A stretch of 64,000 bases of DNA from Escherichia coli (GTDB lineage: Bacteria > Pseudomonadota > Gammaproteobacteria > Enterobacterales > Enterobacteriaceae), in NCBI RefSeq assembly GCF_003018255.1, contig NZ_CP027440.1. One strand, 5' to 3'. This document shows positions 6,138-22,987 of this stretch, in pieces. The notes beneath the pieces are model-generated. The model was not told where the DNA came from. It worked only from the letters and a program-made list of their open reading frames with translations, and made no database searches. A program made the translations under genes and the position numbers. Position 1 is the stretch's first letter, and each line of letters starts with the position of its first letter.

Positions 6138-8567
6138 GTGTCGTCGTTGCCCGTTGCTGCCGTCTTACCTGAGTTACTTGCTGCTCTCGATTGTGCATCG
6201 CAGGTGTTATTAAGTGCGCCGACCGGGGCCGGGAAATCAACCTGGCTGCCGCTGCAACTGCTGGCGCATCCCGGCATTAACGGGAAAATTATCCTGCTGG
6301 AGCCGCGTCGTCTGGCGGCGCGTAACGTTGCGCAACGACTGGCGGAGCTGCTTAACGAAAAGCCAGGCGATACCGTTGGCTACCGGATGCGTGCGCAAAA
6401 CTGCGTCGGGCCGAATACCCGCCTGGAAGTGGTTACCGAAGGCGTGCTGACGCGGATGATCCAGCGTGACCCGGAACTGAGCGGTGTTGGATTGGTGATC
6501 CTTGATGAATTTCATGAGCGCAGCTTGCAGGCGGATTTGGCGTTGGCGCTGTTACTCGATGTGCAACAAGGTCTGCGTGATGACCTTAAACTGCTGATTA
6601 TGTCGGCTACGCTGGACAACGACCGCTTGCAGCAAATGCTGCCAGAAGCGCCCGTCGTCATCTCAGAAGGGCGCTCGTTTCCGGTTGAACGCCGTTATTT
6701 GCCGCTGCCCGCTCATCAGCGTTTTGACGAAGCCGTCGCGGTTGCCACCGCCGAAATGCTGCGTCAGGAAAGTGGATCATTACTGTTATTTTTACCTGGC
6801 GTCGGAGAAATTCAGCGTGTGCAGGAACAACTGGCTTCACGCATCGGCAGTGATGTGTTGCTCTGCCCGCTGTATGGCGCGTTGTCGCTGAACGATCAGC
6901 GAAAAGCGATCCTCCCGGCACCGCAAGGGATACGTAAAGTGGTGCTGGCGACCAATATTGCTGAAACCAGTTTAACCATCGAAGGTATTCGTCTGGTGGT
7001 GGATTGTGCCCAGGAGCGTGTGGCGCATTTTGATCCGCGTACAGGGCTTACGCGGCTGGTTACTCAACGCGTTAGTCAGGCGTCGATGACGCAACGTGCC
7101 GGGCGTGCCGGGCGTCTGGAGCCGGGTATCTGCCTGCATTTAATCGCCAAAGAACAAGCAGAACGCGCTGCCGCGCAAAGTGAACCGGAGATCTTACAAA
7201 GCGATCTTTCCGGTTTGCTGATGGAATTACTGCAATGGGGATGCAGCGATACGGCGCAGATGAGCTGGCTGGATCAACCGCCAACGGTGAATCTACAGGC
7301 CGCGAAACGGCTGTTACAAATGCTGGGGGCGCTGGAGGGTGAACGGCTTAGCGCACAAGGGCAAAAAATGGCAGTGCTGGGTAGCGATCCGCGTTTAGCG
7401 GCAATGCTGGTTAGCGCGAAGAACGACGACGAAGCTGCTACCGCGGCAAAAATTGCCGCCATTCTCGAAGAGCCGCCACGGATGGGCAATAGTGACCTGG
7501 GCGTGGCGTTTTCGCGCAATCAACCCGCCTGGCAGCAACGTAGTCAGCAACTGTTAAAACGCTTAAACGTACGCGGCGGTGAGGCAGACAGTTCGCTTAT
7601 CGCGCCGCTACTTGCCGGGGCGTATGCCGATCGCATTGCTTGTCGCCGTGGGCAAGATGGACGCTATCAACTGGCAAACGGCATGGGGGCGATGCTCGAT
7701 GCCGACGATGCGCTAAGCCGCTACGAATGGTTGATCGCACCGTTATTATTGCAGGGCAGCGCCTCGCCGGATGCGCGGATTTTACTGGCGCTACCGGTCG
7801 ATATCGATGAATTAGTACAACGCTGTCCGCAGCTGGTACAGCAGTCGGACACCGTGGAATGGGATGACGCGCAAGGCACGCTGAAAGCCTGGCGTCGGCT
7901 GCAAATCGGTCAGTTGACGGTGAAAGTGCAGCCACTGGCGAAACCCTCGGAAGACGAGTTGCATCAGGCGATGCTTAACGGCATCCGTGATAAAGGTTTA
8001 AGCGTGCTCAACTGGACGGCGGAAGCGGAACAGCTACGCTTGCGTTTGTTATTCGCCGCAAAGTGGTTGCCGGAATATGACTGGCCAGCGGTTGATGATG
8101 AGAGTTTGTTGGCGACGCTGGAAACGTGGCTACTGCCGCATATGAGCGGCGTGCATTCACTACGCGGCCTGAAATCACTCGACATTTATCAGGCGCTACG
8201 CGGATTACTTGATTGGGGAATGCAGCAACGTCTGGATAGTGAATTGCCTGCGCATTACACTGTGCCGACGGGAAGCCGGATCGCCATTCGTTATCATGAA
8301 GATAAACCGCCCGCGCTGGCGGTGAGAATGCAGGAGATGTTTGGTGAGGCCACCAATCCGACGATCGCCCAGGGGCGCGTGCCGCTGGTGCTGGAGTTGC
8401 TTTCCCCTGCCCAAAGGCCATTACAAATCACACGAGATTTGAGCGCCTTCTGGAAAGGAGCGTACCGTGAGGTGCAAAAAGAGATGAAAGGGCGTTATCC
8501 CAAACATGTCTGGCCGGACGACCCGGCAAATACTGCACCGACGCGACGGACGAAAAAGTATTCGTGA
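6138..8567 (+). CDS. hrpB: ATP-dependent RNA helicase HrpB (DEAH-box)
   Basis: ORF track 6093..8567 (+). Walker A APTGAGKST and DEFHER motif. Start placed at GTG 6138 (MSSLPVAAVLPELL..., 809 aa); the upstream ATG at 6093 is the alternative. Confidence 0.88.
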   Translation: MSSLPVAAVLPELLAALDCASQVLLSAPTGAGKSTWLPLQLLAHPGINGKIILLEPRRLAARNVAQRLAELLNEKPGDTVGYRMRAQNCVGPNTRLEVVTEGVLTRMIQRDPELSGVGLVILDEFHERSLQADLALALLLDVQQGLRDDLKLLIMSATLDNDRLQQMLPEAPVVISEGRSFPVERRYLPLPAHQRFDEAVAVATAEMLRQESGSLLLFLPGVGEIQRVQEQLASRIGSDVLLCPLYGALSLNDQRKAILPAPQGIRKVVLATNIAETSLTIEGIRLVVDCAQERVAHFDPRTGLTRLVTQRVSQASMTQRAGRAGRLEPGICLHLIAKEQAERAAAQSEPEILQSDLSGLLMELLQWGCSDTAQMSWLDQPPTVNLQAAKRLLQMLGALEGERLSAQGQKMAVLGSDPRLAAMLVSAKNDDEAATAAKIAAILEEPPRMGNSDLGVAFSRNQPAWQQRSQQLLKRLNVRGGEADSSLIAPLLAGAYADRIACRRGQDGRYQLANGMGAMLDADDALSRYEWLIAPLLLQGSASPDARILLALPVDIDELVQRCPQLVQQSDTVEWDDAQGTLKAWRRLQIGQLTVKVQPLAKPSEDELHQAMLNGIRDKGLSVLNWTAEAEQLRLRLLFAAKWLPEYDWPAVDDESLLATLETWLLPHMSGVHSLRGLKSLDIYQALRGLLDWGMQQRLDSELPAHYTVPTGSRIAIRYHEDKPPALAVRMQEMFGEATNPTIAQGRVPLVLELLSPAQRPLQITRDLSAFWKGAYREVQKEMKGRYPKHVWPDDPANTAPTRRTKKYS

Positions 8568-8660
8568 AGACCAAAGCAAATTTGAGAGATATCTTCTTCT
8601 GTCTTGCAACAGAAGAACAGAAAATCGGGCTTTTGCGCCTGAATATTGCGGAGAAAAAGC

Positions 8661-11192
8661 ATGGCCGGGAATGACCGCGAGCCAATTGGACGCAAAGGGA
8701 AACCGACGCGTCCGGTCAAACAAAAGGTAAGCCGTCGTCGTTACGAAGATGACGATTACGACGATTATGATGACTATGAGGATGAAGAACCGATGCCGCG
8801 CAAAGGTAAGGGCAAAGGCAAAGGGCGTAAGCCTCGTGGCAAACGCGGCTGGCTATGGCTGCTGCTAAAACTGGCTATCGTTTTTGCCGTGCTGATCGCC
8901 ATTTACGGCGTTTATCTCGATCAAAAAATTCGCAGCCGTATTGATGGCAAGGTCTGGCAATTGCCCGCGGCAGTTTATGGCCGAATGGTCAACCTTGAGC
9001 CAGACATGACCATCAGCAAGAACGAAATGGTGAAGCTGCTGGAGGCGACCCAGTATCGTCAGGTGTCGAAAATGACCCGTCCTGGCGAATTTACCGTGCA
9101 GGCCAACAGCATTGAGATGATCCGCCGTCCGTTTGATTTCCCGGACAGTAAAGAAGGGCAGGTGCGTGCGCGTCTGACCTTTGATGGCGATCATCTGGCG
9201 ACGATCGTCAATATGGAGAACAACCGTCAGTTTGGTTTCTTCCGTCTTGATCCGCGCCTGATCACCATGATCTCCTCGCCAAACGGTGAGCAGCGTTTGT
9301 TTGTGCCGCGCAGTGGTTTCCCGGATTTGCTGGTGGATACTTTGCTGGCGACAGAAGACCGCCATTTCTACGAGCATGATGGGATCAGTCTCTACTCCAT
9401 CGGACGTGCGGTGCTGGCAAACCTGACCGCCGGACGCACGGTGCAGGGTGCGAGTACGCTGACGCAACAGCTGGTGAAAAACCTGTTCCTCTCCAGCGAG
9501 CGCTCTTACTGGCGTAAAGCGAACGAAGCTTACATGGCGCTGATCATGGACGCGCGTTACAGCAAAGACCGTATTCTTGAGCTGTATATGAACGAGGTGT
9601 ATCTCGGTCAGAGCGGCGACAACGAAATCCGCGGCTTCCCGCTGGCGAGCTTGTATTACTTTGGTCGCCCAGTAGAAGAATTGAGCCTCGACCAGCAGGC
9701 GCTGTTGGTGGGTATGGTGAAAGGGGCGTCCATCTACAATCCGTGGCGTAACCCGAAACTGGCGTTGGAGCGACGTAATCTGGTACTGCGTCTGCTGCAA
9801 CAGCAACAGATTATTGATCAAGAACTCTATGACATGTTGAGTGCACGTCCGCTGGGGGTTCAGCCGCGCGGTGGGGTGATCTCTCCACAGCCAGCCTTTA
9901 TGCAACTGGTGCGTCAGGAGCTGCAGGCAAAACTGGGCGATAAGGTAAAAGATCTCTCCGGCGTGAAGATCTTCACTACCTTTGACTCGGTGGCCCAGGA
10001 CGCGGCAGAAAAAGCCGCCGTGGAAGGCATTCCGGCACTGAAGAAACAGCGTAAGTTGAGCGATCTTGAAACCGCGATTGTGGTCGTCGACCGCTTTAGT
10101 GGTGAAGTTCGTGCGATGGTTGGAGGTTCTGAGCCGCAGTTTGCGGGCTACAACCGTGCGATGCAGGCGCGTCGTTCGATTGGTTCCCTTGCAAAACCAG
10201 CGACTTATCTGACGGCCTTAAGCCAGCCGAAAATCTATCGCCTGAACACGTGGATTGCGGATGCGCCAATCGCGCTACGTCAGCCGAATGGCCAGGTCTG
10301 GTCACCGCAGAACGATGACCGTCGTTATAGCGAAAGCGGCAGAGTGATGCTGGTAGATGCGTTGACCCGTTCGATGAACGTGCCGACGGTGAATCTGGGC
10401 ATGGCGTTGGGGCTGCCTGCGGTTACGGAGACCTGGATTAAACTGGGTGTGCCGAAAGATCAACTGAATCCAGTTCCAGCAATGTTGTTGGGGGCGTTGA
10501 ACTTAACGCCAATCGAAGTGGCGCAGGCGTTCCAGACCATCGCCAGCGGTGGTAACCGTGCTCCGCTTTCTGCACTGCGTTCGGTAATCGCGGAAGATGG
10601 CAAGGTGCTGTATCAGAGCTTCCCGCAGGCGGAACGCGCTGTTCCGGCGCAGGCGGCGTATCTGACACTATGGACCATGCAGCAGGTGGTACAACGTGGT
10701 ACGGGGCGTCAGCTTGGGGCGAAATACCCGAACCTGCATCTGGCAGGGAAAACAGGGACTACCAACAATAACGTAGATACCTGGTTTGCGGGCATTGACG
10801 GCAGTACGGTGACCATCACCTGGGTAGGCCGTGATAACAACCAACCGACCAAATTGTATGGAGCCAGCGGGGCAATGTCGATTTATCAGCGTTATCTGGC
10901 TAACCAGACGCCAACACCGCTGAATCTTGTTCCGCCAGAAGATATTGCAGATATGGGCGTGGACTATGACGGCAACTTTGTTTGCAGCGGTGGCATGCGT
11001 GTCTTGCCGGTCTGGACCAGCGATCCGCAATCGCTGTGCCAGCAGAGTGAGATGCAGCAGCAGCCGTCAGGCAATCCGTTTGATCAGTCTTCTCAGCCGC
11101 AGCAACAGCCGCAACAGCAACCTGCTCAGCAAGAGCAGAAAGACAGCGACGGTGTAGCCGGTTGGATCAAGGATATGTTTGGTAGTAATTAA
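8661..11192 (+). CDS. mrcB: Penicillin-binding protein 1B (bifunctional glycosyltransferase/transpeptidase)
   Basis: ORF track 8646..11192 (+); start at [13 protein letters not shown]...; acidic [14 protein letters not shown] tract, TM helix [29 protein letters not shown] and SxxK motifs, Q/P-rich C-terminus. Confidence 0.93.
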
Positions 11193-11411: not shown

Positions 11412-13601
11412 ATGGCGCGTTCCAAAACTGCTCAGCCAAAACACTCACTGCGTAAAATCGCAGTTGTAGTAGCCACAGCGGTTAGCGGCATGTCTGTTTA
11501 TGCACAGGCAGCGGTTGAACCGAAAGAAGACACTATCACCGTTACCGCTGCACCTGCGCCGCAAGAAAGCGCATGGGGACCGGCTGCAACTATTGCGGCG
11601 AAGCACTCTGCTACTGCGACTAAAACGGATACACCAATTGAAAAAACGCCGCAGTCTATTTCGGTTGTGACAAATGAAGAGATGCAGATGCATCAATTTC
11701 AGTCTGTAAAAGAAGCATTAGGTTATACACCTGGCGTTACGGTTAGCAGTCGTGGTGCTTCTAATACATATGATTTTGTTATTATTCGTGGTTTCTCATC
11801 TGTTGGTCTGAATCAAAATAATTACCTTGATGGACTAAAACTTCAGGGCAACTTTTATAACGATGCTGTGATTGATCCTTACATGCTCGAGAGGGTTGAA
11901 CTGATGCGCGGGCCGACGTCTGTTCTCTATGGGAAAAGTAATCCTGGTGGGATTATTTCTATGGTGAGTAAGCGTCCGACAACTGAACCCCTGAAAGAAA
12001 TTCAGTTTAAAATGGGGACGGATAATCTGTTTCAGACCGGATTCGATTTCAGTGATGCGCTGGATGATAACGGTGAGTTCTCCTACCGTTTGACTGGCCT
12101 CGCACGCTCAACAAACGAACAGCAGAAAAACTCTGAATCTCAGCGTTATACCATTGCTCCATCATTCTCATGGCGTCCAGACGACAAAACCAATTTTACT
12201 TTCCTGTCCTATTTTCAGAACGAACCAGAAACGGGTTATTACGGTTGGTTGCCGAAAGAGGGGACCGTTGAGCCATTGCCTAATGGTAAGCGTCTACCGA
12301 CTGACTTCAATGAAGGTGCATCGAATAATACATACTCCCGTAACCAGAAAATGGTGGGATATAGTTTTGAACATGGTTTTAATGACACCTTCACCGTGCG
12401 TCAGAATCTGCGTTTCAGTGAAATGAAAACCTCACAGAAAAGTGTTTATGGCACAGGGATTGCCAGCGATGGTCATACCCTAAACCGCGGGACAGTGGTG
12501 GATAATGAGCGTCTGCAAAACTTTAGCGTTGATACCCAACTTGAAAGTAAATTTGCTACAGGTGAAGTCGAGCATACTTTGCTGACAGGGGTAGACTTCA
12601 TGCGTATGCGCAATGATATCAATGCCAGCTTTGGATCTGCACCATCCATCGATCTTTATAACAAATATCATCCTGAATACTTTGCATTTGGTAACGCAGA
12701 GCCATACCAAATGAATGAAAGCAAACAAACAGGTATTTATGTTCAGGATCAGGCGGAATGGAATAAATGGGTATTCACTCTGGGGGGACGCTACGATTGG
12801 TCTAAGCAAGCGACCACTGTTCGTGAAAACTCTTATACGCCGACTGAAGGTTATATTGAGCGTAATGATCATCAGTTCACCTGGCGCGGTGGTGTAAACT
12901 ACTTATTCGATAATGGTATTTCACCTTACTTTAGTTATAGCCAGTCCTTTGAACCGAGTGCTTTCGATCTGTGGAGCAACCCGCGCGTTTCCTATAAGCC
13001 ATCGAAAGGTGAACAGTATGAAGCTGGCGTAAAATATGTTCCGAATGATATGCCGGTCGTTGTTACGGGCGCAGTCTATCAATTGACGAAAACAAATAAC
13101 CTGACAGCAGACCCAACAAACCCGTTAGCGCAAGTCCCAGCAGGTGAGATTCGCGCTCGTGGTGTGGAACTTGAAGCAAAAGCGGCGTTAAATGCCAATA
13201 TTAACTTGACGGCTTCTTATACCTACACAGATGCGGAATACACCAAAGACACCAATCTCAAAGGTAAAACTCCAGAACAAGTACCGGAGCATATGGCATC
13301 TCTCTGGGGGGATTATACCTTCAATGAAGGGCCGCTTTCTGGTTTAACATTGGGAACAGGTGGTCGTTTTATTGGTTCCAGCTATGGTGATCCGGCGAAC
13401 ACTTTTAAAGTGGGTAGCGCAGCTGTAATGGATGCTGTTGTAAAATATGATCTGGCACGCTTTGGTATGGCGGGATCCAGCCTTGCTGTGAACGTCAACA
13501 ATTTGCTCGATCGTGAGTATGTTGCCAGTTGCTTCCAGACCTATGGCTGCTTCTGGGGCGCAGAACGTCAGGTCGTTGCAACCGCAACCTTCCGTTTCTA
13601 A
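11412..13601 (+). CDS. fhuA: Ferrichrome outer-membrane transporter / phage receptor FhuA (TonB-dependent), divergent allele
   Basis: ORF track 11412..13601 (+), 729 aa; signal peptide MARSKTAQPKHSLRKIAVVVATAVSGMSVYAQA, TonB box DTITVTA, C-terminal ...CFWGAERQVVATATFRF. Confidence 0.93.
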   Translation: MARSKTAQPKHSLRKIAVVVATAVSGMSVYAQAAVEPKEDTITVTAAPAPQESAWGPAATIAAKHSATATKTDTPIEKTPQSISVVTNEEMQMHQFQSVKEALGYTPGVTVSSRGASNTYDFVIIRGFSSVGLNQNNYLDGLKLQGNFYNDAVIDPYMLERVELMRGPTSVLYGKSNPGGIISMVSKRPTTEPLKEIQFKMGTDNLFQTGFDFSDALDDNGEFSYRLTGLARSTNEQQKNSESQRYTIAPSFSWRPDDKTNFTFLSYFQNEPETGYYGWLPKEGTVEPLPNGKRLPTDFNEGASNNTYSRNQKMVGYSFEHGFNDTFTVRQNLRFSEMKTSQKSVYGTGIASDGHTLNRGTVVDNERLQNFSVDTQLESKFATGEVEHTLLTGVDFMRMRNDINASFGSAPSIDLYNKYHPEYFAFGNAEPYQMNESKQTGIYVQDQAEWNKWVFTLGGRYDWSKQATTVRENSYTPTEGYIERNDHQFTWRGGVNYLFDNGISPYFSYSQSFEPSAFDLWSNPRVSYKPSKGEQYEAGVKYVPNDMPVVVTGAVYQLTKTNNLTADPTNPLAQVPAGEIRARGVELEAKAALNANINLTASYTYTDAEYTKDTNLKGKTPEQVPEHMASLWGDYTFNEGPLSGLTLGTGGRFIGSSYGDPANTFKVGSAAVMDAVVKYDLARFGMAGSSLAVNVNNLLDREYVASCFQTYGCFWGAERQVVATATFRF

Positions 13602-20717: not shown

Positions 20718-20740
20718 GTGCCGGATAAACTATCCGGCAC
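20718..20740. terminator. Hairpin gtgccggata-aac-tatccggcac between convergent erpA and yadS
   Basis: Perfect 10-bp stem read from sequence; T-rich tract follows on plus strand. Confidence 0.45.
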
Positions 20741-20751
20741 ATCTTCTCTCT

Positions 20752-21375
20752 TCAACGCCCATTCTCATCCAGCGCAAACGTCGGTAGCTTAAGATGCCAA
20801 CGAATAGCCGCCAGCCGAATCAATAGCGTCACGACCATGCCCATCATACTGGCTGTTTCCAGTGGTACGGAAAATGTGTAATAAGCCGTAGCGTGGACAA
20901 TACCGCCGATAATACAGGCTGTTGCGTAGATTTCTGTACGTAAAATCATGGGGATCTCGCGGGCAAGTACATCACGAATGATCCCGCCGCCAACGCCAGT
21001 AATGACGCCCATACAAACCGCGATTAACGGACCGGCTTCCGCATTAAAGGCTTTATTCACGCCAATGCCGACAAACACTGCCAGACCAACGGCGTCCAGC
21101 ACCGGCAACATCCATTTTGGTAAGCGTCTTGGCTGGCGCACCAGCACGATGGTCAGCATGCTGGTGACCATTGCAACGACCAGATCGGTGGGATCTTTCA
21201 CCCAAAATACCGGGCCGTGATCCAGCGCCATGTCGCGAATTGTTCCGCCGCCTACTGCGGTAACCACGCCCAATACCAGAACACCAAAAGGGTCCATACG
21301 CAATTTTCCGGCTAACAAAACGCCAGAGATAGCAAATACCGCTGTGCCGACTATATCCAGCCAATAGACGAGCAT
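20752..21375 (-). CDS. yadS: UPF0126 family inner-membrane protein
   Basis: ORF track 20752..21375 (-), 207 aa; duplicated glycine-rich membrane repeats (GGGTIRD, GGGIIRD). Confidence 0.88.
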   Translation of the reverse strand: MLVYWLDIVGTAVFAISGVLLAGKLRMDPFGVLVLGVVTAVGGGTIRDMALDHGPVFWVKDPTDLVVAMVTSMLTIVLVRQPRRLPKWMLPVLDAVGLAVFVGIGVNKAFNAEAGPLIAVCMGVITGVGGGIIRDVLAREIPMILRTEIYATACIIGGIVHATAYYTFSVPLETASMMGMVVTLLIRLAAIRWHLKLPTFALDENGR

Positions 21376-21412
21376 TGTTCAATCCCCACTGAGCACCTGA
21401 AAAGGTCAGGCA

Positions 21413-22213
21413 TTAATCTACCTGTGAAAGCGCATTACAGAGCTGTTGTGCAGCGAGGATAATACGTGGGCTTGCACGTTCAAACCAGTCACTCGTGAGA
21501 GGAATAACGGGAATTTTGAGCTGTTCACCCCAGTATTGTTTGATTTTAGGAATTTGGTCCGGTCCGCCTGTAATGACAATCGCCTGTGGCGCGCGTGCTA
21601 ACACCTGTTCGCGGCTAACTTGCGGCCAGGGAACCCGGCTGTCTTTAAAGATGTTTTCTCCGCCACAAACTTCGAGTACCTGGTTTTGAATCGACTCTTT
21701 TCCACTAGTAAATGGCGGATTAATGCCGAATTGCAGAAAAACACGTTTTTTAGGTTTATCAGCATATTGCGCTTTCAATTGCGCGTACTGGTCCAGCAGG
21801 GATTGCGCGGCTTGTTCGGCCTTATCCGGTTGCGGACTCCAGGGGACCAGTTGACGTAACGCATTGGCAATTTGTTCAATGCTTGTCGCATCGACCCACA
21901 TCACTTTTATTCCCAGAGAAGCCAGCTGGTCAACCTGCCGCTCGGCATTACCTCCACGCCAGGCAATCACCAGATCGGGTTTCAGCGCCACAATGCGTTC
22001 CAGATTCATCCCCTGCCAGGTGGAAACCTGCTCAATTTTTTGCGCTTGTGGAGGATAGTCGGAATAGCTGCTGACCCCAACCGGCGTGATCCCGGCGGCA
22101 AAGGCAAGTTCAGTGTTGGCGGGAGAAAGCGTGATGACGCGCGGCGCGGCGTTGAGCCACAGCGGCGCGAGAAAAGACAGGGCGACCAGCGCCCTGAACA
22201 GTGACTTAGCCAT
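21413..22213 (-). CDS. btuF: Vitamin B12 periplasmic binding protein
   Basis: ORF track 21413..22240 (-); start at ATG 22211-22213 ([22 protein letters not shown] signal peptide, 266 aa). Confidence 0.9.
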
Positions 22214-22904
22214 GTGCCAGTTTCTGCACCAGTGACTCAACCATCAGGCTGGACTGTTTAGCGGCAACAGCCAGGAACTCATCGAAGCTAAGATGAGACT
22301 GTTGATCGGCCACGTCGGAAATGGCGCGTACGACAACAAACGGGACGTTGAAATTGTGGCAGACATGGGCGATTGCCGTCGCTTCCATCTCTACAGCAAT
22401 GGCCTGTGGGAAGTTGTGGCGGATTTTCGCCAGACCAACAGAACCATTGATGAAAGCGTCGCCGCTGACAATCAGGCCACGTACAGCGTTTAGATTCAGT
22501 TCGGCAATGCAGGCCTCAGCGGCAGCGATCAGTTTATCGTCAGCTTTAAAGCCTGCCGGGCAGCCTGGTAACTGGCCGTATTCATAACCAAATGCCGTGA
22601 CATCCGCGTCGTGATAACGCGCTTCGTCCGAGACAACGATATCGCCCACTTTCAGTGTTGGTGCCAGGCCACCGGCAGAACCGGTGTTAATAATCACATC
22701 TGGCTTGCAGTGTTCCAACAGCAAAGTGGCACCCAGCGCCGCAGCGACTTTACCGATGCCCGATTTCAGAAGCGCAACCTCGGTTCCATTCAGTTGGCCG
22801 GTATAGATTTCGCAACCGCCGAGACTGATAGTTTGACGGTTTTCGATTTTGTCACGCAGTAGCGTAACTTCTTCTTCCATTGCACCAATGATGCCGATTT
22901 TCAT
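22206..22904 (-). CDS. mtnN: 5'-methylthioadenosine/S-adenosylhomocysteine nucleosidase
   Basis: ORF track 22206..22904 (-), 232 aa, [13 protein letters not shown]...; 8-nt overlap with btuF start. Confidence 0.95.
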
Positions 22905-22987
22905 AGATTTACTCGCGATAAGCCCGATTTGAAGGCATAGTTTACCATGCGCTTACGGGGAAGCGTATTTCTCACGCGGGAGAGGAC

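Follow-up and report, generated by a model that had tools for sequence, protein, structure and literature searches.

The mrcB locus and its product

The stretch of DNA analysed here (the window) comprises 64,000 nucleotides of Escherichia coli contig NZ_CP027440.1, and the part under study carries mrcB (ponB), the housekeeping gene for the bifunctional peptidoglycan synthase PBP1b. An earlier note, made from the letters of this DNA, had named the gene as mrcB, and the name is upheld by the Pfam architecture and by near-identity to the solved E. coli PBP1b. In the ORF listing for the window, a single frame of 843 codons runs from the ATG at 8661 to a stop codon ending at 11192; the ORF as listed opens at a TTG five codons upstream of this ATG, and the ATG itself is the start annotated by RefSeq in identical genomes. 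Four Pfam matches, all exceeding the curated cut-offs, follow one another in the order PBP1_TM (PF14812, residues 1-78), UB2H (PF14814, 112-196), Transgly (PF00912, 208-378) and Transpeptidase (PF00905, 472-713). The E. coli PBP1b structures 3VMA, 3FWL and 5FGZ were matched at E=0 and are essentially identical to the translated protein, the 3VMA match extending over residues 52-803. The catalytic motifs are intact, namely EDRHF with E232, SLAK with S509, SMN at residues 571-573 and KTG at residues 697-699; E232 is the counterpart of E233, the catalytic Glu of the glycosyltransferase in K-12. The gene lies between hrpB (upstream) and fhuA (downstream), as it does in K-12 and CFT073, and its domain order, catalytic motifs, orthology and neighbourhood are all those of a class A PBP1b (MrcB).

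The Shine-Dalgarno sequence of the main start forms a duplex of -6.6 kcal/mol with the 3' end of the 16S rRNA. A scan of positions 8350-8900 for promoters and terminators found neither. The features referred to below are collected in Table 1.

Table 1. Features of the mrcB region, with positions in the window
Feature	Position	Strand	Basis
GGAG Shine-Dalgarno sequence of the alpha isoform, 7 nt upstream of ATG 8661	8650..8653	+	Read from sequence
mrcB (ponB) CDS, PBP1b alpha isoform, 843 aa and stop	8661..11192	+	ORF, Pfam, PDB matches
Codons 1-14, conserved alpha-only N-terminal peptide	8661..8702	+	Conservation
Acidic Asp/Glu/Tyr tract, residues 28-43, degenerate 3/9-nt periodic repeat	8742..8789	+	Sequence
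Single GAT (GATGAT in K-12 and Escherichia outgroups); site of the 3-nt deletion giving 843 aa	8754..8756	+	Alignment
Shine-Dalgarno-like GAGGA of the internal start, contained in the codons GAG GAT (Glu-Asp)	8778..8782	+	Sequence
Internal in-frame ATG, codon 45 (K-12 Met46), gamma start, product of 799 aa here	8793..8795	+	Sequence and literature
(Lys-Gly)4 (KG) array, imperfect hexanucleotide repeat with perfect unit GGCAAAGGCAAAGG; second length-polymorphic site	8802..8825	+	Tandem Repeats Finder
Transmembrane helix, residues 64-85 (boundary inferred)	8850..8915	+	Hydrophobic stretch within the Pfam PBP1_TM match
Gln/Pro-rich low-complexity C-terminal tail, residues 799-826	11055..11138	+	Sequence
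9-nt unit CCGCAACAG between CAACAG direct repeats; absent in 14% of E. coli	11109..11117	+	Genome comparison

One Asp codon fewer in a degenerate acidic repeat

The mrcB gene of K-12 has 2535 nt and encodes 844 aa, and the protein in the window is one residue shorter, as the earlier note had counted. The difference lies in the Asp run of the acidic tract, which reads GAT GAC GAT TAC in the window as against GAT GAC GAT GAT TAC in K-12. This one Asp codon is the sole difference in length between the two genes, and H604N and I782V (K-12 numbering) are the only other differences between the two proteins.

The string gatgacgattacgacgattatgatgactatgaggatgaa (8748-8786), which had been quoted as a near-trinucleotide repeat, codes for the core of the acidic tract, residues 30-42. 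The repetitiveness of the tract is above chance: the self-match at a lag of three nucleotides is 62% in the 45-nt stretch 8745-8789, whereas the window averages 28% (sd 7%), and none of the other 45-nt stretches across the 64 kb attains 62%. A repeat search resolved the tract into three 17-nt copies with 76% identity and spacings of 9 and 12. Tandem Repeats Finder, run on the gene at a score of 30, did not call the acidic tract and made the KG array its sole call, so the term trinucleotide repeat fits the tract only in a degenerate sense and is rejected in the strict one. Synonymous codons alternate along the tract (GAT/GAC, TAC/TAT) and leave no long perfect repeat, and the GAT doublet of K-12, a single GAT in the window, is therefore the sole perfect tandem unit where the length varies. 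The earlier description of a D/Y repeat that changes in number holds insofar as a copy of the GAT doublet has been lost; the number of DDY units has stayed the same, apart from one divergent genome labelled E. coli (L011), in which a whole 9-nt DDY unit is lost.

Distribution of the three-Asp allele among E. coli genomes

Allele frequencies were obtained from a collection of 5,426 complete E. coli genomes, 5,424 of which contain the mrcB region. A 51-nt junction-specific query was placed across the deletion, where the four-Asp allele is unable to give a 28-nt seed, and the three-Asp junction was matched exactly in 179 genomes (3.3%). The exact K-12 tract was present in about 5,113 of the 5,424 genomes (~94%). 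Alleles were counted by BLAST identity bands with queries of 93-99 nt, which is sound for the Asp site; such queries fail at the KG site if the array is near the query end, where truncated local alignments still score 100%, and the KG count was therefore taken from a KG-centred query. A second three-Asp allele, with the codons GAT GAC GAC TAC and accompanied by EEEE and three KG units (KG3), was found in 15 genomes and gives 841 aa; with its different codon, it is independent of the allele in the window. Three Asp and KG3 are also combined in another divergent genome labelled E. coli (L010).

Three of the four outgroups, E. albertii and two other Escherichia species, have the K-12 tract in the same codons, and in the fourth, E. 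whittamii, one codon is a synonymous GAC and the residues are unchanged. Since the outgroups share the K-12 state, four Asp codons with four KG units (KG4) are the ancestral condition of the genus, and this combination also predominates within E. coli. The earlier proposal that the acidic tract is a site of length polymorphism is thus borne out by the 179 carriers, and the alignment of strains that had been suggested as a check rejects a repeat length identical everywhere: the polymorphism is real.

Low-complexity triplet repeats are prone to miscalls and the difference is just 3 nt, which would fit an error of sequencing or assembly. Such an error has next to no chance of being the explanation, however, given that 179 independent complete genomes, originating in several hosts and countries, have exactly this junction, which recurs in independent assemblies from different sequencing platforms. 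Seven carriers from different hosts are all annotated with 843 aa, and the exact 843-aa protein is already public as UniProt A0A1Q4PCE2, from 912 contigs.

The carriers diverge from one another by up to about 3% over hrpB-mrcB (5,000 ungapped columns). Among 17 genomes compared at this recombining locus, where recurrent mutation and recombination are inseparable, the deletion was found on four or more divergent local haplotypes, the carriers are not monophyletic in neighbour-joining trees of mrcB, and the four-Asp genome G12 has the same local haplotype as the three-Asp genomes ST70 and M114. Use of the 843-aa allele as a marker of a single clone is ruled out by this divergence and non-monophyly. 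The several haplotypes, together with the haplotype shared by G12, point either to more than one origin or reversion of the indel or to its transfer by recombination.

Length variation elsewhere in the gene

Two further sites in mrcB vary in length. The KG array was delimited by Tandem Repeats Finder at 8800-8824, with a period of 6 and 4.2 copies, and the KG3 form, which has one GGCAAA unit fewer and appears as a 6-nt gap, was counted in 143 of the 5,424 genomes (2.6%). KG3 alleles are also found in genomes L003 and L004 and in other genera.

The Gln/Pro-rich C-terminal tail pointed out in the earlier note is present and is the part of the gene that varies in length most frequently. Deletion of CCGCAACAG in 757 genomes (14%) gives a protein of 841 aa, as in ST131 strain EC958 (WP_000918160.1); EC958 and AR_0081 have one identical PBP1b protein with this deletion, and strain 538 has the same deleted tail. 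Rarer variants of the tail have lost 12 nt (Shigella flexneri, 840 aa) or gained 12 nt (strain elppa5, 848 aa). The earlier note had missed both the KG polymorphism and the leading length variability of this tail.

The crystallised constructs of PBP1b span residues from about 57 to 803, so that the Gln/Pro tail lies largely beyond them; the Asp run, the KG array and the Gln/Pro tail are all in tails that these constructs lack. Across genera, the N-terminal tail of PBP1b has 59-69 residues, and its acidic tract is estimated at about 12-19 residues with 9-16 acidic ones.

The three-nucleotide periodicity of the acidic tract is the highest in the window, length variants occur at three sites in mrcB, the three-Asp state is found on several haplotypes and a DDY unit has been lost in one divergent genome, all of which might be expected if the tract were a hypermutable repeat of the contingency type, in which frequent changes of length within lineages would produce functional variants of PBP1b. 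We give this only a very slight chance. Contingency loci are recognised by a long perfect tract and by frequent changes of length among relatives, whereas the 3-nt unit here has just two perfect copies amid alternating synonymous codons, and a single allele accounts for about 94% of the genomes, occurs in all lineages and has the same codons in three of the four outgroups. The alleles found are few and all in frame, and the C-terminal deletion is unchanged between the strains that carry it (EC958, AR_0081 and, in the tail, 538). By these comparisons the tract is polymorphic but not hypermutable. The description "slippage-prone" in the earlier note is accordingly right in that the length varies and overstated in that a single allele accounts for nearly all of the genomes and for the outgroups.

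Two starts in one frame and the alpha-only N-terminus

The ponB gene is reported to have two start codons, with the gamma isoform initiating at codon 46 (PMC13423804); that paper credits the gamma start to Kato 1984 and Broome-Smith 1985. Ribo-RET recovered mrcB as one of three genes with known internal initiation sites (bioRxiv 10.1101/520783). The Met that the earlier note had identified as the internal start is the equivalent of this documented K-12 Met46, and a GAGGA motif stands upstream of it. The literature evidence that both alpha and gamma are made comes from K-12 and BL21-type strains, and for the allele in the window the two isoforms are predicted. The 24 nt flanking the internal start do not differ from those in E. 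albertii, a species with the K-12-type tract.

The GAGGA motif gives a duplex of -6.1 kcal/mol against -6.6 kcal/mol for the main start. By anti-Shine-Dalgarno energy the internal ATG is fourth among 26 in-frame ATGs and seventeenth among 145 candidate starts in the gene, and prediction of the internal start from duplex energy was set aside as non-discriminating.

Conservation of the internal start was followed in 80 Enterobacteriaceae loci taken from a contig scan, which with the window make 81 sequences that are not phylogenetically independent. The position is ATG in 70 of the 81 and GTG in eight; in one sequence a GTG lies one codon upstream in an ambiguous alignment, and two (Pseudescherichia vulneris and Kluyvera intermedia) have no start-capable codon. 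A Shine-Dalgarno-like core lies within 20 nt in each of the 79 sequences whose codon could serve as a start; GAGGA itself is present in 76 of them, with a spacing of 10 nt in 69. The exclusive use of GTG where Met is replaced by Val was considered as a sign of selection for a start codon and is weak, GTG being the sole Val codon that is one step from ATG; GTG makes up 61% of the Val codons in the Met-to-Val genes, and p is about 0.14 for four lineages.

Codon choice in the acidic tract differs with position. At -5, Glu is encoded by GAG in 69 of 73 sequences, whereas at -3 and -2 it is encoded by GAA in 56 of 65 and 52 of 65, respectively. This pattern suggests a double constraint on the end of the tract, which may be maintained as a ribosome-binding site as well as a coding sequence.

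Upstream of the internal start, the alpha-only segment has 39-49 residues across genera. Its first 14 residues are identical or nearly so in the 80 loci; among Enterobacterales fragments M1, D5 and R6 are invariant, and G3 and E7-G13 are at least 90% conserved. This peptide, and R6 and P8-R11 in particular, is reported to mediate septal recruitment, probably via FtsA (PMC13423804); the same paper also cites later work on the first six residues. The idea that the charge of the acidic tract is matched to that of the basic segment next to the membrane was considered and rejected, since the counts of acidic and basic residues in 53 distinct tails are uncorrelated (Spearman -0.09, p=0.51).

Interpretation

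As a whole, the locus is very probably an ordinary mrcB with a dual start, present in a natural allele from which one GAT has been lost. One frame would give two proteins, alpha from the ATG at 8661 and gamma from the internal ATG at 8793, the latter served by the GAGGA contained in the Glu-Asp codons with which the acidic tract closes. The segment unique to alpha would be an intrinsically disordered cytoplasmic tail made up of the 14-residue peptide, a basic stretch and the acidic D/E/Y tract, and the tract itself is most likely a flexible spacer whose length is loosely constrained. Loss of one GAT from GATGAT, which is most simply explained by slippage or misalignment in replication, shortens this spacer by one Asp; the frame, the peptide that binds FtsA, the gamma motif with its ATG and the catalytic domains are untouched. 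Small in-frame indels of this kind, likewise at short direct repeats, also occur in the KG array and the Gln/Pro tail. We infer slippage as the mutational mechanism for the GAT site.

The change of one residue is probably neutral or nearly so. This is argued by the position of the deletion, 37-39 nt upstream of the internal ATG, which leaves the motif and its spacing unchanged; by the variation between genera in the length of the alpha-only segment and in the acidic count; by the omission of both tails from the crystallised constructs; and by the lack of support for the charge-matching hypothesis.

The indel might instead be adaptive in particular lineages, the length or charge of the spacer tuning either the proportion of alpha to gamma or how far the FtsA-binding peptide can reach. 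The alpha N-terminus does have a specific septal function, the indels cluster in the spacer found only in alpha and in the basic segment next to the membrane, and successful clones, ST131 among them, are fixed for some of the alleles. Fixation in clones is nevertheless what hitch-hiking would lead one to expect, and tuning of this kind is difficult to reconcile with a GAGGA and spacing left intact, with a spacer whose length varies freely between genera and with acidic and basic counts that do not covary; the chance that the indel is adaptive is accordingly small. A slim chance is likewise all that we allow the broader proposal that the indels at the Asp run, the KG array and the Gln/Pro tail are non-neutral and recur because they tune septal recruitment of alpha or the alpha:gamma ratio, with lineage-specific effects on the envelope, for instance in ST131 or in the 843-aa lineages.

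The preferred reading, a natural and near-neutral allele of an ordinary gene, has modest practical consequences for comparison between strains. In about 3% of E. coli the numbering of PBP1b shifts by one, so that Met46, E233 and S510 become Met45, E232 and S509, and the whole protein is 840-848 aa long, depending on the strain. Variation in length is confined to the two tails missing from the crystal structures, which fits the view of these tails as disordered spacers. The internal start and GAGGA are kept in most Enterobacteriaceae, which agrees with maintenance of the gamma isoform; their conservation complements the recent finding that alpha alone is recruited to the septum. The gene, its isoforms (since the 1980s) and the exact 843-aa protein were already known, and the finding is correct but ordinary; small additions made here are the allele frequencies, two further sites of length polymorphism, the finding that the three-Asp allele is not distributed clonally and the observation that the internal start and its GAGGA are conserved throughout the family.

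Comparison with known systems

The closest known system is PBP1b of K-12 (MrcB/PonB, UniProt P02919; PDB 3VMA, 3FWL and the 5FGZ/5HL9 series), with which the window shares the gene, its neighbours, its domains and its catalytic motifs. The internal start and its Shine-Dalgarno-like motif are nucleotide-identical in the two, the internal Met being residue 46 in K-12 and 45 in the window. The spacer between hrpB and mrcB differs, with 93 nt in the window and 195 nt in K-12.

The contingency loci of pathogens resemble mrcB in that length changes at a short coding tandem repeat, most plausibly through slipped-strand mispairing. They differ from it in repeat number, mrcB having only two copies of GAT or about 2.3 perfect copies of GGCAAA, and in outcome, as the changes in mrcB are all in frame and produce no on/off switching, and one allele dominates the species.

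The genes with internal starts that were recovered by Ribo-RET, infB, clpB and mrcB (bioRxiv 10.1101/520783), each encode two isoforms in one frame, with a Shine-Dalgarno-like sequence for each start. The mrcB of the window does not differ in kind from this class, of which mrcB is itself a textbook case; its peculiarity is that the Shine-Dalgarno-like motif is built of codons of the acidic tract.

Length polymorphisms and substitutions within mrcB

In its commonest length polymorphism, mrcB had lost a 9-nt unit from the C-terminal Q/P tail; this deletion was carried by 757 E. coli genomes (14%), among them the ST131 strain EC958. Other length variants of this tail were of -12 nt and +12 nt. 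The (Lys-Gly) array was also polymorphic in length: of the 5,424 E. coli genomes, 143 carried a three-unit version. Three units were found in almost every other Enterobacteriaceae genus, and the four-unit form was found in Escherichia and in a small number of the other species sampled (Silvania spp. and Enterobacteriaceae RIT691).

Apart from the one-Asp deletion, the PBP1b of the window differed from that of K-12 by two substitutions, H604N and I782V. Position 604 was His in all six of the other 843-aa carriers that were compared, and Asn604 is therefore specific to the haplotype shared by the window and strain JNE112863.

Features in and around mrcB in the window and in the compared loci
Feature	Sequence	Position	Remark
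hrpB-mrcB spacer	window	8568-8660	93 nt
hrpB-mrcB spacer	K-12 locus (L103)	2391-2585	195 nt
hrpB-mrcB spacer	EC1515 locus (L105)	2395-2588	194 nt
Perfect 9-bp inverted repeat	window	8594-8617	27 nt past hrpB stop
(Lys-Gly)4 hexanucleotide array	window	8802-8825	shortly 3' of internal Met
H604N codon (K-12 numbering)	window	10467-10469	
I782V codon (K-12 numbering)	window	11001-11003	
9-nt unit of Q/P tail	window	11109-11117	CAACAG direct repeats on both sides
fhuA	window	11412-13601	729 aa
Fimbrial operon (major subunit, chaperone, usher)	EC958 (ST131) locus (L091)	20725-25001	

Regions flanking mrcB

The hrpB-mrcB spacers of K-12 and EC1515 carry an additional GC-rich palindromic repeat of approximately 100 nt, of the type CCCTCTCCC...GGGAGAGGG, which is missing from this spacer in the window and in the B2 strains. 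The inverted repeat within the window spacer, TTCTTCTGT-cttgca-ACAGAAGAA, is AT-rich and without a T-run, and the terminator scan made no call on it. Elsewhere in the window, Rfam matches at gathering score were obtained for the HtrA 5' UTR thermometer (24595-24640), t44 RNA (33532-33618) and the CssrA sRNA (34457-34566).

Immediately 3' of mrcB lies the fimbrial operon in EC958, and fhuA in the window, K-12 and CFT073. FhuA, a phage and siderophore receptor, is 729 aa long in the window and in strain G12; the K-12 protein has 747 aa and that of CFT073 has 752 aa, indicating that fhuA, like mrcB, has length alleles.
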